This document shows positions 18,979 through 22,547 of a stretch of 64,000 nucleotides of DNA, piece by piece. Numbering within the stretch: position 1 is the first letter of the stretch; each line of letters starts with the position of its first letter. A model generated the notes under the pieces. That model ran no database searches. It worked only from the letters and a program-made list of their open reading frames with translations, and was not told the origin of the DNA. A program made the translations under genes and the position numbers. This stretch comes from Candidatus Caldarchaeales archaeon (GTDB lineage: Archaea > Thermoproteota > Nitrososphaeria_A > Caldarchaeales > Calditenuaceae): NCBI GenBank assembly GCA_039630085.1, contig JBCNVM010000004.1, positions 1 through 64,000 of the forward strand, given 5' to 3'.

Positions 18979-20031
18979 GTGGTCCGCGTGGCCTGCGTCG
19001 CATCCCACTCGGCGCTCGACGTCTTCGACGGCGCCAAGGACGAGGGCCTCGGGACTGTAGCGATTTGCAGGAAGGGACGCGACCTCATCTACAAGTCGCT
19101 GACCCGACTGGTGGACCTCTGCGTCGACCTGAACGACTACGGGGAGATGCTGAGGGAAGACGTTCAGACGAGGCTGATAGAGCTCGGGTGCGTCGTCGTC
19201 CCGAACAGGAGCATGGCCGTCTACGTCGGTTACGACGGGATAGAGCGGGAGCTCAGGGTTCCGGTCTTCGGTAACAGGAGGATGTTGAGGTGGGAGGAGA
19301 GGGCGGGTGAGTCCAATTACTACAGGCTGCTCGACGAAGCGGGAGTCAGGAGGCCCAAGGTCTACGGCGATCTGGACGATGTCGACGGTCCCGTGCTCCT
19401 CAAGGTTCAGGAGGCGAGGAGGCCCCAAGAGAGGGCCTTCATCTATGCGACGGACCGCGACGAACTGAACGCGAAGGTGAGGGCAGCGCTAACCTCGGGT
19501 TTGATATCAGAGGAGGGCCTGAGGTCTGCGGTGGCGGAGGAGCTGGTCCTAGGGGCCCACTTCAACGTCAACTTCTTCTTCAGTCGGGTGCACGGGAGGC
19601 TCGAGATTGTCAGCGCCGACAGGAGGATCCAGACGAACCTCGACGGCGTGGTCCGGCTGCCGGCTAGGGTCCAGCTGGGACTTGAGGTGCCTCACTCTAT
19701 GATCGAGGTCGGGCACGTCCCCTGCACGCTCAGGGAGAGCCTCTTGAACGAGTGCTACGGGATCGGGCTCAGGGTCCTCGAGGCCTCGATGAGGTTGGAG
19801 CCTCCCGGCCTGATAGGGCCCTTCACCCTCCAGCTCCTCGTGACCCCGGACCTGAAGTCGGTCGTCTACGACTTCGCCCCTAGGATTGGAGGAGGTACCA
19901 ACGCCCACATGGGGACCGGCGGGAACTACTCGAAGCTCTGGCTGGGCAAAGCGGTCAGCATGGGGAGGAGGATCGCGATCGAGCTGAGGGAGGCCGAGGA
20001 GCAGGGGATGCTCGAGGAGGTCCTGACCTAG
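18979..20031 (+). CDS. purP: PurP family formate-AICAR ligase paralog 2
   Basis: [31 protein letters not shown]. Confidence 0.85.
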
Positions 20032-20390
20032 AGGAGCGGGAGCGAACCGGTCACCCTGTCGATCAGCTCCGAGGGCGCGGGCCCAAGCCCGAGGGCCGTC
20101 GTGGTCCCGGGCTCGAGCTCCGTGAGCCCCGCGTCCTCGATAAGGGCCGCGGGTATCCCCAGCGCCTCCGCCTTCCGCTTCAGGCCCAGCAGATCATCGA
20201 GGCTCCCGACCTTCAGGACGACCTTCTTCTGGCCGGACGCGAGCCACCTCTCCGCCCACTCCGGCCTCGACCTCCTCGCCTCCAGGAACGCTGATACCGC
20301 GGCGTGCCCCGCTTGGGCCGCGAGCTTACCGACGCTCATCCTGATGTCAGTCCGGATGACGATCGCTTGCTTCAGCTCGCTCAAGGCCAA
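20028..20390 (-). CDS. pth: Peptidyl-tRNA hydrolase Pth2
   Basis: [27 protein letters not shown]. Confidence 0.95.
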
Positions 20391-21271
20391 GACCTCCCGC
20401 TCCCGAGGCTCGCGGGCCTGTTGTTCAGCCCGACCACCATCACCTCGCCGTAATCCGAGAGGGCGTCGGAGACGGCGTCGGAGTCCGACCTGCTGACCAG
20501 TGCGGCCATCGCGGGTCCGGTCCCCGAGATCGAGCAGGAGCGCGCCCCTCGCCTCATCGCCTCCGCGAGGAACTCGGCGCCGTATCCGAGGGCCGCCGAC
20601 ATCGCGAGTCCGTTGACGGTCATGGCCCCGAAGAGGTCGCCGCGCAGGGCTAGGTCGAAGGCCGCATCGAACGCGGGCCTAAACGGGTCGAGGATCTCGC
20701 GTCTGAACTCGGAGGTGTAGGTCCTCCTGCCCTTCGGGACCGAGACGACCGCCACGATGTCGCCACCGACCCCCTCCCTCCTGAGGAGCGCCTTGGCCGC
20801 GTTGTCGGTCACCACGAACCCTCCCATGAAGCAGGCCGCCGCGTCGTCGGCAGCGCCGGTCACCGACGTCCCCGACCTCAGCGATGCCTCCGCGATCAGC
20901 CTCAGGGCCTCTTCGGGAGCGGGCAGCACCCCCAACGCGTCGAAGAGCGCGAACGCGACCGCCGAGGCCGCGGCGCTCGAGCTCTTCAGCCCCACCGCTA
21001 CCGGGACCTCTGAGATTACATCGACCTCACAGCCTACCCCCCTCGTCCCCGCCCAGTCCAGAACCACTTCGACCGTAGCCCTGACGACCCTGTCGTCCCC
21101 GACCCGACCCACGTCCAGGAACCTCACCCCCGACTCGCCCTCAATCAGCCTAACCCGTGCCCGCGTCCTCAGCCCGATCCCGAGCGCCGCTCCCCTCCCG
21201 GTCGGTATCGCGTTGACCACCGTCACCGCCCCTCCCACGACCGCCTCGCCTTCAAGCACCATTTCCGGCAT
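20381..21271 (-). CDS. aroK: Archaeal shikimate kinase (GHMP family)
   Basis: [25 protein letters not shown]; start at ATG 21271 or 21262, not 21535. Confidence 0.9.
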
Positions 21272-21327
21272 GCTCCCGGGGACCTTCAGGGCTTTATGGT
21301 TCAAGAGCACCATCGGTCCACCACACG

Positions 21328-21335
21328 TTTTTATC
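21328..21335 (+). promoter_or_regulatory. TATA-like box of the asd-aro operon
   Basis: TTTTTATC. The same TTTATC core lies 28-31 nt before the start codons of priS, MFS, eif2b, leuC and the spermidine synthase, so TSS is inferred at about 21359. Confidence 0.65.
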
Positions 21336-21358
21336 GTGGTCGTTTCGCGGTGGTGCGA

Positions 21359-21494
21359 GCGGAGGGGGTAGGTGTGGTCCTGAGCTCGGTGAACGCGTTC
21401 TGGTTCACGACCTACCCCTACTTCTACTTCGGGAACTGAGGATGAAGGAACCCACGCCCGCCCCCTCCGCCTCCGTCTCCGGGGTGATCCGTGT
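21359..21494 (+). promoter_or_regulatory. Candidate translational attenuator leader of the aromatic amino acid operon
   Basis: Perfect complements 21365-21373/21410-21418 and 21359-21368/21461-21470 share one strand; 21459-21464 can pair with the asd SD at 21481-21486. Confidence 0.65.
21374..21439 (+). CDS. Phe/Tyr/Trp-rich leader peptide (MVLSSVNAFWFTTYPYFYFGN)
   Basis: GGAGGGGG SD 5 nt before GTG; 4 Phe, 3 Tyr and 1 Trp codons clustered; directly upstream of the chorismate operon. Confidence 0.75.
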   Translation: MVLSSVNAFWFTTYPYFYFGN

Positions 21495-22547
21495 TTGGCT
21501 AGGTTGAAGGTGGGAGTTCTGGGAGCGACGGGCATGGTCGGGCAGATCTACCTGAGGATGCTGGACAGGCACCCGTGGTTCGAAGTCTCCTCGGTCTCAG
21601 GAAACACCACGGTCGGGAAGAGTCTGGCAGAGGCCTATGGCGGGAAGGGCGAGGTGCCCGAGCGGCTAAGAGACCTCGAGGTGCTGCCCTCCGACCCGAG
21701 GAAGTTCGACGTCGACTTCGTCTTCAGCTGTCTCCCGACAGAGGCGGCGAGGTCCGTCGAGCCGGAGTTCGCGAGGGCCGGCTTCCCGGTCTTCTCCGAC
21801 GCCTCGGCCCACAGGTATCAGGAGGACGTGCCCCTGATGGTCCCCGAGGTCAACCCCGACCACCTCGACCTGATCGAGGTCCAGCGGAGGAGAAGGGGAT
21901 GGGACGGCTTCATCGTGACGACGCCCAACTGCACGACCCTGACCTTCGTCCTCCCCCTTAAGCCGCTGGTCGACGCGTTCGGCGTGAAGCACGTGGACGT
22001 CGTGACGATGCAGTCCGTCTCGGGGGCCGGTTACAACGGCGTACCCTCGATGGCGATCCTCGGGAACATAATCCCTTACATCAAAGGAGAGGAGGAGAAG
22101 GTCTCGTCGGAGCCCAAGAAGATACTCGGGAGGCTCTCGGACGGGAGGATCGAGCCCGCGAGGTTCGAGGTCGACGCCACCTGCACGCGGGTCCCGACGC
22201 TGGTCGGCCACCTCGCCTCCGTCTCGGTCGAGCTCGAGAGGGACTTCAGGTTCGAGGAGGTGGTCGAGGCGCTGAGCTCGTTCGAGGGCCTCCCGCAGAG
22301 GTTGGAGCTCCCGACGGCTCCCCGCAGGCCGATTGTGGTGGCGAGCGAGCCCGACAGGCCCCAGCCGAGGCTCGACGCGGAGGCGGGCGACGTCAGAGGC
22401 ATGCCGGTCTTCGTCGGAAGGATGAGGAGAGGTGCGAGGGAGAGAACGGTCAGGTTCGTCTCGCTGAGCAACAACCTCGTCAGGGGAGCCGCGGGTATCG
22501 CGATCCTCACGGCGGAGCTCGCCCACGCGACGGGGAGGCTGAGGTGA
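21495..22547 (+). CDS. asd: Aspartate-semialdehyde dehydrogenase (archaeal type)
   Basis: GATGMVG, VPEVN, PNCTT, QSVSGAG, CTRVP, NLVRGAAG; TTG start with GGGGTGA SD. Confidence 0.95.
   Translation: MARLKVGVLGATGMVGQIYLRMLDRHPWFEVSSVSGNTTVGKSLAEAYGGKGEVPERLRDLEVLPSDPRKFDVDFVFSCLPTEAARSVEPEFARAGFPVFSDASAHRYQEDVPLMVPEVNPDHLDLIEVQRRRRGWDGFIVTTPNCTTLTFVLPLKPLVDAFGVKHVDVVTMQSVSGAGYNGVPSMAILGNIIPYIKGEEEKVSSEPKKILGRLSDGRIEPARFEVDATCTRVPTLVGHLASVSVELERDFRFEEVVEALSSFEGLPQRLELPTAPRRPIVVASEPDRPQPRLDAEAGDVRGMPVFVGRMRRGARERTVRFVSLSNNLVRGAAGIAILTAELAHATGRLR

Follow-up and report, generated by a model that had tools for sequence, protein, structure and literature searches.

A conserved structured leader with an aromatic-codon reading frame upstream of the asd-aro operon in one family of hot-spring archaea

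The question raised by this locus is whether a short reading frame rich in Phe, Tyr and Trp codons, placed before an operon for making the same three amino acids, could serve as a sensor of aromatic amino acids, and by what route such a sensor would act on the operon. The frame lies in the window (the whole 64,000-nucleotide stretch of DNA that was analysed) upstream of asd, the gene for aspartate-semialdehyde dehydrogenase. Downstream of asd follow genes for a DeoC-type aldolase, dehydroquinate synthase II, dehydroquinase I, shikimate dehydrogenase and EPSP synthase, and asd and these aro genes together form what we take to be the archaeal route to aromatic amino acids, starting from aspartate semialdehyde. 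A sequence-only reading of the stretch had proposed a switch in which segment 1, at the 5' end, pairs either with segment 2 inside the aromatic codons (helix 1:2) or with the C-rich segment 3 (helix 1:3), while segment 3 can pair instead with the asd Shine-Dalgarno sequence (helix 3:4). In that proposal helices 1:2 and 3:4 mask the asd Shine-Dalgarno, which is released when a ribosome stalls at the aromatic codons and allows 1:3 to form.

The asd locus and its predicted transcript start

The leader stretch lies between the divergent kinase and asd genes (Table 1), and the same divergent arrangement of kinase and asd occurs in 13 further loci. The kinase reading frame probably begins at the ATG near 21271 or 21262 and not at 21313 or 21535; in the 21313 translation, alignment to the kinases of relatives begins at residue 36. 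The sequencing runs that contain positions 21250-21900 are DNA runs labelled as hot-spring metagenomes, with no RNA run among them.

A TATA-like box is the candidate promoter of the leader-asd transcript, and the gap from its end to G21357 is 21 nt. The distance from the end of the AT-rich octamer to the first G of segment 1 was 21-27 nt in all 17 loci that reach that far. Because this spacing is kept across loci, segment 1 is predicted to be the 5' end of the mRNA, with the start at or beside G21357. The 16S rRNA gene is absent from the source assembly, which is 89.9% complete, and the 16S genes of two relatives were used instead; their 3' ends read GAUCACCUCC.

Table 1. Features of the leader and its flanking genes in the window
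Feature	Coordinates	Strand	Description
GHMP-type kinase gene (archaeal shikimate kinase type)	20381..21271	-	Divergent from asd; Pfam GHMP_kinases_N and GHMP_kinases_C
TATA-like box TTTTTATC	21328..21335	+	Promoter candidate of the leader-asd transcript, from sequence
Conserved 5' leader domain (P1, P2, P3)	21357..21473	+	About 117 nt; exact span of the match to covariance model R2
Segment 1a GAGCGGAGGGGG	21357..21368	+	5' strand of P1 (helix 1:3); contains GGAGG 21361-21365
Segment 1b	21365..21381	+	Alternative partners segment 2 or 21446-21458; holds start codon GTG 21374
Leader frame MVLSSVNAFWFTTYPYFYFGN	GTG 21374 to TGA 21437-21439	+	Plausible frame of 21 codons, 8 aromatic
Inner stem GTGAAC/GTTCAC	21389..21408 (arms at 21389 and 21403)	+	Inside the P2 loop
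Segment 2 ACCTACCCC	21410..21418	+	Codons T-Y-P; 3' strand of P2
Tyr/Phe codon run after P2 (TACTTCTACTTC)	21419..21430	+	Pyrimidine-rich, predicted single-stranded
Segment 3, C-rich 3' strand of P1	21452..21470	+	Core CCCCCTCCGC at 21461-21470
asd Shine-Dalgarno GGGGTGATCC	21481..21490	+	GGTGATCC complementary to the 16S 3' end of relatives
asd (aspartate-semialdehyde dehydrogenase)	21495..22547	+	Opens the operon

Helices and reading frame of the leader domain

Structures were assessed as thermodynamic predictions throughout, using standard parameters extrapolated to high temperature. The domain folded with a minimum free energy of -57.1 kcal/mol (z -4.2), a value that none of 200 shuffles matched, and its length is 110-119 nt across the 18 loci. 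The wider stretch 21340-21510 (171 nt) gave a z-score of only -0.27, and the fold signal is therefore confined to the domain. Minimum free energy folds across the family contain three helices: in P1 the C-rich segment 3 is the partner of domain nucleotides 1 to about 16, in P2 segment 2 is the partner of nucleotides from about 10 to 28, and P3 is a small hairpin at the stop codon. The three are nested in most loci, and RNAalifold run on the raw alignment also placed P1 and P2 together in nested form. Duplex energies ranged from -25 to -36 kcal/mol for P1 (z -1.2 to -5.2) and from -22 to -33 kcal/mol for P2 (z -2.9 to -7.1). The C-rich strand of P1 includes CCUCC, which resembles the 16S 3' end.

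P1 is the 1:3 helix of the sequence-only reading, and the pairing of 21365-21373 with segment 2, its 1:2, is equivalent to P2. The strings on which that reading was built are all present where it had placed them (GCGGAGGGGGTAGGT at 21359-21373, CGCCCC at 21459-21464, GGGGTG at 21481-21486, and segment 2, the segment 3 core and the inner stem as in Table 1), and its proposal that helices tie the 5' end both to the aromatic codons and to the C-rich segment is borne out with compensatory changes in relatives. A perfect helix of at least 10 bp occurred in 36 of 2000 dinucleotide shuffles of 21340-21510, and two helices of at least 9 bp with a common arm occurred in none of the 2000. Helices 1:2 and 1:3 are above chance and are real. 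The inner stem is restricted to two loci of the window's clade (L002 and L003), and the P2 loop differs between groups.

The two helices had been described as mutually exclusive, and this holds for the window's clade and fails for most of the family. In the window they have four G in common (21365-21368), and across loci P1 and P2 in their maximal forms have 3-10 nt of segment 1 in common. Both helices were nevertheless present together in the 37 C equilibrium ensembles of 13 of the 18 loci, nested and each at a probability of at least 0.7. In two others (L011 and L017) P1 gave way to pairing with asd, 45 nt of which had been included in the fold, and L017 recovered at 70 C. P2 in the window's clade (L002-L004) reached a probability of just 0.09-0.10 at 37 C and 0.01-0.02 at 70 C; here segment 1b pairs with 21446-21458 instead and prolongs P1, with CCACGCC (21452-21458) of segment 3 pairing with 21371-21377. 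Exclusion of 1:2 in favour of an extended 1:3 is, in these models, a property of the window's clade only. Folding of growing prefixes placed the formation of 1:2 ahead of the synthesis of segment 3. Before segment 3 exists, the G-run of segment 1a was also predicted to make a weak helix, rich in G-U pairs, with the Tyr/Phe codons that follow segment 2 and later to swap to segment 3. As modelled, the proposal that one arm has a choice of two partners does find a conserved equivalent, yet segment 3 always wins.

The distribution of the element was assessed with a covariance model (R2) built from 15 family sequences. R2 found the window's own copy and one domain copy per genome, always upstream of asd, in 16 of the 18 other genomes of the family, and it found none in 82 genomes of 19 other families. 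One of the two misses is a genome of 73% completeness, where the query used did not recover the asd locus itself, and the other is the single genome of genus g2 (one of the family's genera g1 to g4), whose divergent copy (L019) was matched at E 0.06 by the first model. The asd gene was located in 60 of 61 related genomes, with the aromatic frame upstream in the window's family alone. A pattern scan of metagenomes returned at least 119 matching stretches; among the 80 examined R2 accepted one (L172), a repeat of an L005-type sequence with its 3' end missing. The best relatives in a search of public genomes for asd were at most 53% identical, with no family member among them. Aromatic-rich frames were seen upstream in 3 of 38 archaeal loci from public genomes, and all three look like oligo-T or AT-rich artefacts. 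Two crude, insensitive scans of the same genome gave no convincing second codon-biased leader, their matches being terminator T-runs or coding sequence, and the genome offers no paralogous design for comparison.

Covariation was measured on an alignment (A5) of 15 of the 18 sequences, L002, L003 and L019 falling below threshold. Standard pairs filled 94.6% of alignment cells as compared to 43-54% with slid partners. Double-sided changes were found at 13 of 32 pairs, a number that 3 of 500 shuffles reached, and they were spread over P1 (5 of 14 pairs), P2 (5 of 13) and P3 (3 of 5). The covariation score was 0.366 versus 0.196, with none of 500 shuffles as high. These statistics are optimistic, as the 18 loci are close kin of about five sequence types and the alignment was fitted to the model. 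The compensatory changes support all three predicted helices. P1, for example, reads GAGCGGAGGGGG/CCCCCTCCGCTC in g1 and GAGTAGGGGG/CCCCCTGCTC, two pairs shorter, in g3, and a P2 codon that reads CCC, GCC or ACC has GGG, GGC or GGT opposite it.

The frame from GTG 21374 to TGA 21439, with GGAGG before its start, is a plausible leader frame, and GGAGG is likely its Shine-Dalgarno sequence; a longer frame from ATG 21296 begins 5' of the TATA-like box. Its aromatic codons are TTC 21398, TGG 21401, TTC 21404, TAC 21413, TAC 21419, TTC 21422, TAC 21425 and TTC 21428. The sequence-only reading had pointed to this frame of Phe, Tyr and Trp codons, and an intact aromatic-rich frame of 21-29 codons was found in the same register in 18 of 18 loci, with the stop at domain nucleotides 80-87. 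The start is a GTG or ATG at domain nucleotides 17-18 in g1 and g4 and an ATG at nucleotide 13 in g2. For g3 the start codon is an ATG lying two nucleotides 5' of segment 1, at the predicted transcript start, and by promoter spacing the g3 frame would be leaderless. A core of Thr-(Thr/Ala)-Tyr-x-Tyr-Phe-(Tyr/Phe) is kept, with the Tyr-Phe order reversed in one locus, and the positions of Trp codons differ from locus to locus. Aromatic codons in the P2 loop, where pairing imposes no constraint, made up 31 of 135 codons (23%) in frame as compared to 4 of 136 (2.9%) and 16 of 125 (12.8%) in the other two frames. This enrichment fits selection on codons and not on RNA sequence.

The run of Tyr/Phe codons that follows P2 is predicted to be open. 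In the window its unpaired probability rose from 0.72 at 37 C to 0.87 at 60 C, and across the 18 loci it was 0.42-0.90, with U at 5-8 of the 12 nt. Between the end of the frame and the 3' strand of P1 lie at least 13 nt (to the extended strand, from 21452 in the window) or at least 15 nt (to the core), and a ribosome can therefore finish inside the closed loop.

A possible ribosome-read sensor and its alternatives

The reading that we prefer takes the domain as the roughly 117-nt 5'-terminal leader of the asd-aro operon mRNA in one hot-spring archaeal family, and as a whole we give it an even chance. P1 would clamp the extreme 5' end, that is segment 1a with the leader's GGAGG, to segment 3. 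P2 would join the start-codon region of the leader (segment 1b) to the Thr-Tyr-x-Tyr codons of segment 2, and P3 would hold the stop codon in its small hairpin. We infer that the frame is translated and that, when aromatic aminoacyl-tRNA is scarce, a ribosome stalls on or just after segment 2 and keeps P2 open; the 3' strand of P2 is supplied by the aromatic codons. P1 would form with or without stalling, and in the window's clade the freed segment 1b would prolong it. Consistent with this, P1 persisted in 18 of 18 loci when a ribosome-sized block was placed on the aromatic codons. The frame, its codon content, its position before the matching operon and the pairing of its codons with its own start region point to a sensor of aromatic aminoacyl-tRNA, a conclusion we hold as evenly poised between right and wrong. 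With about the same balance of belief, 1:2 and 1:3 would be nested partners that share a few G and act as parts of one sensor, rather than the two states of a switch.

Once formed, P1 and P2 would bury the leader's own Shine-Dalgarno and start codon, so the frame would probably be readable only during transcription, once per transcript. Such a one-shot reading would place the output, a step that we infer in its entirety, on the fate of the transcript, by read-through or stability. No structural difference downstream of P1 was predicted between the stalled and free states, and besides P2 the only conserved difference between them is the single-stranded Tyr/Phe codon run. A stalled ribosome might hide this U/C-rich run from a cleavage or termination activity that depends on U-tracts, or from another nuclease; this is our preferred guess, and we regard it on its own as rather doubtful. 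Against it, the window's run has no U-run longer than 2, and the genome's terminators resemble T6-7 runs. We also considered that stalling might sequester a pyrimidine tract lying 5' of segment 3; the effect was clear in g4 only and weak elsewhere, and was dropped as a general mechanism.

The switch proposed by the sequence-only reading locates the output at the asd Shine-Dalgarno instead, and several observations speak for it: all four segments are present as written, prefix folds put 1:2 before segment 3, in the window at 37 C only 3.8 kcal/mol separate the masked state (1:2 with 3:4) from the minimum, with a findpath barrier of 17 kcal/mol once it is fully formed, and leaderless poly-Cys frames of mycobacteria are reported to unmask a downstream ribosome-binding site (10.1101/834739). 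The same state, however, lies 8.1 and 9.0 kcal/mol above the minimum at 60 and 75 C, and the source is a hot spring. Over 37, 60 and 75 C helix 1:3 had a pair probability of 0.97-0.99 in the window, 1:2 did not exceed 0.001, and 3:4 stayed at 0.000. Helix 3:4 itself did not stand up, being at chance level and not conserved. The SD hexamer found a 6-bp partner (G-U allowed) within 58 nt upstream in 1523 of 2000 shuffles, and in none of the 18 loci did segment 3 pair with the asd initiation region more strongly than shuffles did (z -0.8 to +2.6). When segments 1, 2 and 3 were each taken against the asd initiation region, no duplex beat shuffles (z -1.5 to +2.6). The spacer from segment 3 to the SD measures about 7-13 nt in g1 and g3, about 22 nt in g2 and about 55 nt in g4, and 3:4 has no counterpart in g3 or g4, whose spacers run from about 11 to about 55 nt; a mechanism that depends on proximity is therefore not conserved. 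The hot-spring source makes a 6-bp 3:4 helix with a G-U pair still less credible. Seven free 5' nucleotides would also give segment 3, which is made before the SD, a toehold, and the coexistence of 1:2 and 1:3 in 13 of 18 loci counts against a switch between them. The proposed switch was also put to a folding test, with 31 nt over the aromatic codons forced unpaired. Predicted accessibility of the asd SD at 37 C was equal to two decimals in 17 of 18 loci, the exception being L011 (0.30 to 0.47), and at 70 C the shift was at most 0.05. Unchanged accessibility with segment 2 blocked is the result by which the sequence-only reading had proposed to be refuted. Blocking segment 1 instead changed the SD in both directions with no pattern. 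Stalling is thus not predicted to free the SD, the sensor output is probably not SD masking by these models, and we consider the proposed switch quite improbable. Taken as a whole, the observation behind it is partly confirmed and its interpretation partly supported.

Three further explanations do without SD masking. The domain may be a constitutive structured 5' end that stabilises the mRNA of a thermophile, with the short frame being a small protein gene or having no regulatory consequence. P1 does pair the predicted 5'-terminal nucleotides in all loci, with the strong duplex energies given above, and the lack of any predicted state-dependent structure downstream fits as well. This account leaves unexplained why the frame favours codons for precisely the three amino acids that the operon makes, why aromatic codons in the loop are concentrated in one frame (23% versus 2.9% and 12.8%), why the Tyr/Phe order and the Trp position move while the aromatic content stays, and why the element occurs once per genome at the asd-aro operon only; we think it unlikely. 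Alternatively the RNA may bind a ligand, as a riboswitch would, or a repeat-binding protein on its UAC/UAU triplets, with the frame incidental. The three-helix domain is compact and conserved and its UAY triplets repeat with 6-nt spacing, which speaks for this reading, but the genera differ in the junction and loop sequences from which a pocket would be built, and the frame, start codon and stop position are kept in 18 of 18 loci. An Rfam scan of 20500-22500 with E up to 10 returned 7 weak matches, all far below gathering scores, and no leader family, and we give a binding RNA a very slim chance. Classical transcription attenuation, in which alternative helices govern intrinsic termination before asd, is suggested by the resemblance of end-product codons and a P2 hairpin followed by a pyrimidine-rich run to enterobacterial leaders, and a one-shot sensor would suit a transcriptional decision. 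The sequence-only reading had noted the absence of a U-tract, and indeed no terminator-like site was found in 21200-21700; the longest U-run in 21357-21494 is 3, as against the T6-7 runs at gene ends in this genome. The pyrimidine run moreover lies inside the frame, so polymerase would pass it before a ribosome reads the codons, and intrinsic termination here appears extremely doubtful. The misfit of these bacterial-style readings, terminator and SD masking alike, is the reason that transcript fate deserves the experimental focus under the preferred reading of a ribosome-read sensor.

Comparison with known systems

Leader-peptide control of amino-acid operons is a textbook mechanism in bacteria, whose transcription termination differs from that of archaea. 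Our searches of the literature on archaeal leader peptides, attenuation and aromatic regulation, with most subscription journals outside their scope, found no archaeal leader-peptide sensor described. A new design of this kind, with an aromatic frame read once during transcription inside a 5'-terminal three-helix domain, P2 set against an extended P1 by the stalled ribosome, and neither terminator hairpin nor SD masking, is offered as a tentative suggestion. It would act on the fate of the operon transcript, for example through concealment of the U/C-rich codon run from the archaeal machinery of cleavage and termination. The locus is a compact testable case in that it combines a conserved frame, three covarying helices, a predicted transcript start and codons matched to the operon. 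If regulatory, it would show how ribosome-based sensing connects to an archaeal output and would yield a thermostable, amino-acid-responsive RNA part.

The enterobacterial attenuators (pheL-pheA, trpL; Rfam Trp_leader RF00513) combine a short frame of end-product codons, helices on those codons and ribosome stalling. The archaeal leader resembles them in having such a frame before a biosynthetic operon, in helices that involve the codons and in a stalled ribosome as the presumed sensor. Unlike them it has no terminator hairpin with U-run and no Rfam match, its codons pair with its own start region, and its main helices are nested in most loci instead of exclusive. The four-segment logic of the sequence-only proposal is that of ermC-type translational attenuation, for which the 3:4 element lacks support in this leader; a ribosome-binding site sequestered by a stall-responsive helix was not found in silico. 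The tnaC and mgtL leaders act through Rho, which Archaea are not known to possess. As in tnaC and mgtL, a ribosome stalled on the leader could hide a single-stranded tract from a termination factor, which is the guess preferred above; a link of this leader to the archaeal factor aCPSF1/FttA would be conjecture. The factor aCPSF1/FttA is reported to work with U-tracts (PMC8716108, PMC11616081), and aCPSF1 to act jointly with terminator U-tracts in an archaeon (PMC8716108). The control described for aromatic amino-acid genes in an archaeon is that by Tar (TK0271), an activator of aromatic operons in Thermococcus kodakarensis, which is a DNA-binding protein and not an RNA leader (PMC6737238).

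The closest translational analogue is the leaderless poly-Cys frame of mycobacteria, where a stalled ribosome is reported to block a duplex that sequesters a downstream ribosome-binding site (Canestrari et al., 10.1101/834739). The duplex blocked here would differ, since one strand of P2 comes from the 5' region of the leader itself and no helix with the asd initiation region exceeds chance. In both systems an amino-acid-specific frame lies at the 5' end of the mRNA and a stalled ribosome blocks a duplex, as we presume for the archaeal leader, and the g3 frame, like the mycobacterial frames, appears to start at the first nucleotides of its transcript.

The divergent kinase gene and the asd promoter region

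The gene for a GHMP-type kinase was found to be divergent from asd, the first gene of the aromatic amino-acid operon, as was also seen in 13 further loci, and the promoter region, about 60 bp long, is therefore common to both genes. A second AT-rich motif was located within this region near 21293-21299. When the kinase was translated from 21313, alignment with relatives was obtained only from residue 36 onward, suggesting that the true start is probably an ATG near 21271 or 21262.

Genes upstream of asd
Feature	Position	Strand	Remark
ATP-grasp protein, DUF1246 + DUF1297 domains	18979-20031	plus	neighbour upstream
PTH2 peptidyl-tRNA hydrolase	20028-20390	minus	neighbour upstream
GHMP-type kinase, listed frame	20381-21535	minus	384 aa, over-extended

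The region between leader and asd in relatives

In the loci of genus g4 (L016:1442-1500, L017 and L018) the leader domain was separated from asd by an AT-rich spacer of about 55 nt. At the start of this spacer, 2 nt 3' of helix P1, stood another SD-like sequence, GAGGTG. In L016 this was followed by a 15-codon frame whose terminal ATGA overlapped the asd start, with no conservation of the frame in L017. The spacer element may represent an additional small frame or an additional promoter.

In several loci of genus g3 (L008-L015, about nt 128-145 of the leader) the asd SD GGTG was complementary to ACC directly before the ATG, and in several segment 2, the aromatic-codon strand of P2, was similar to the complement of asd codons 3-7 (TAGGTTAGGTGTAG). 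As duplexes with the asd initiation region, neither g3 pairing was stronger than shuffles. A metagenome contig terminated within its leader copy (L172:351-449), and the 99 nt present matched L005-type sequence.

Terminators of the genome and the asd leader

Matches of the genome-wide leader scan at gene ends were rejected as false, being T6-7 runs that translated as Phe-rich pseudo-frames. Such runs, for example CCCTTTTTTTGG, occurred at gene ends (contigs C12:142604-143324, C45:11509-12415 and C3:5533-6372). They show the local terminator style, and the asd leader is without them.
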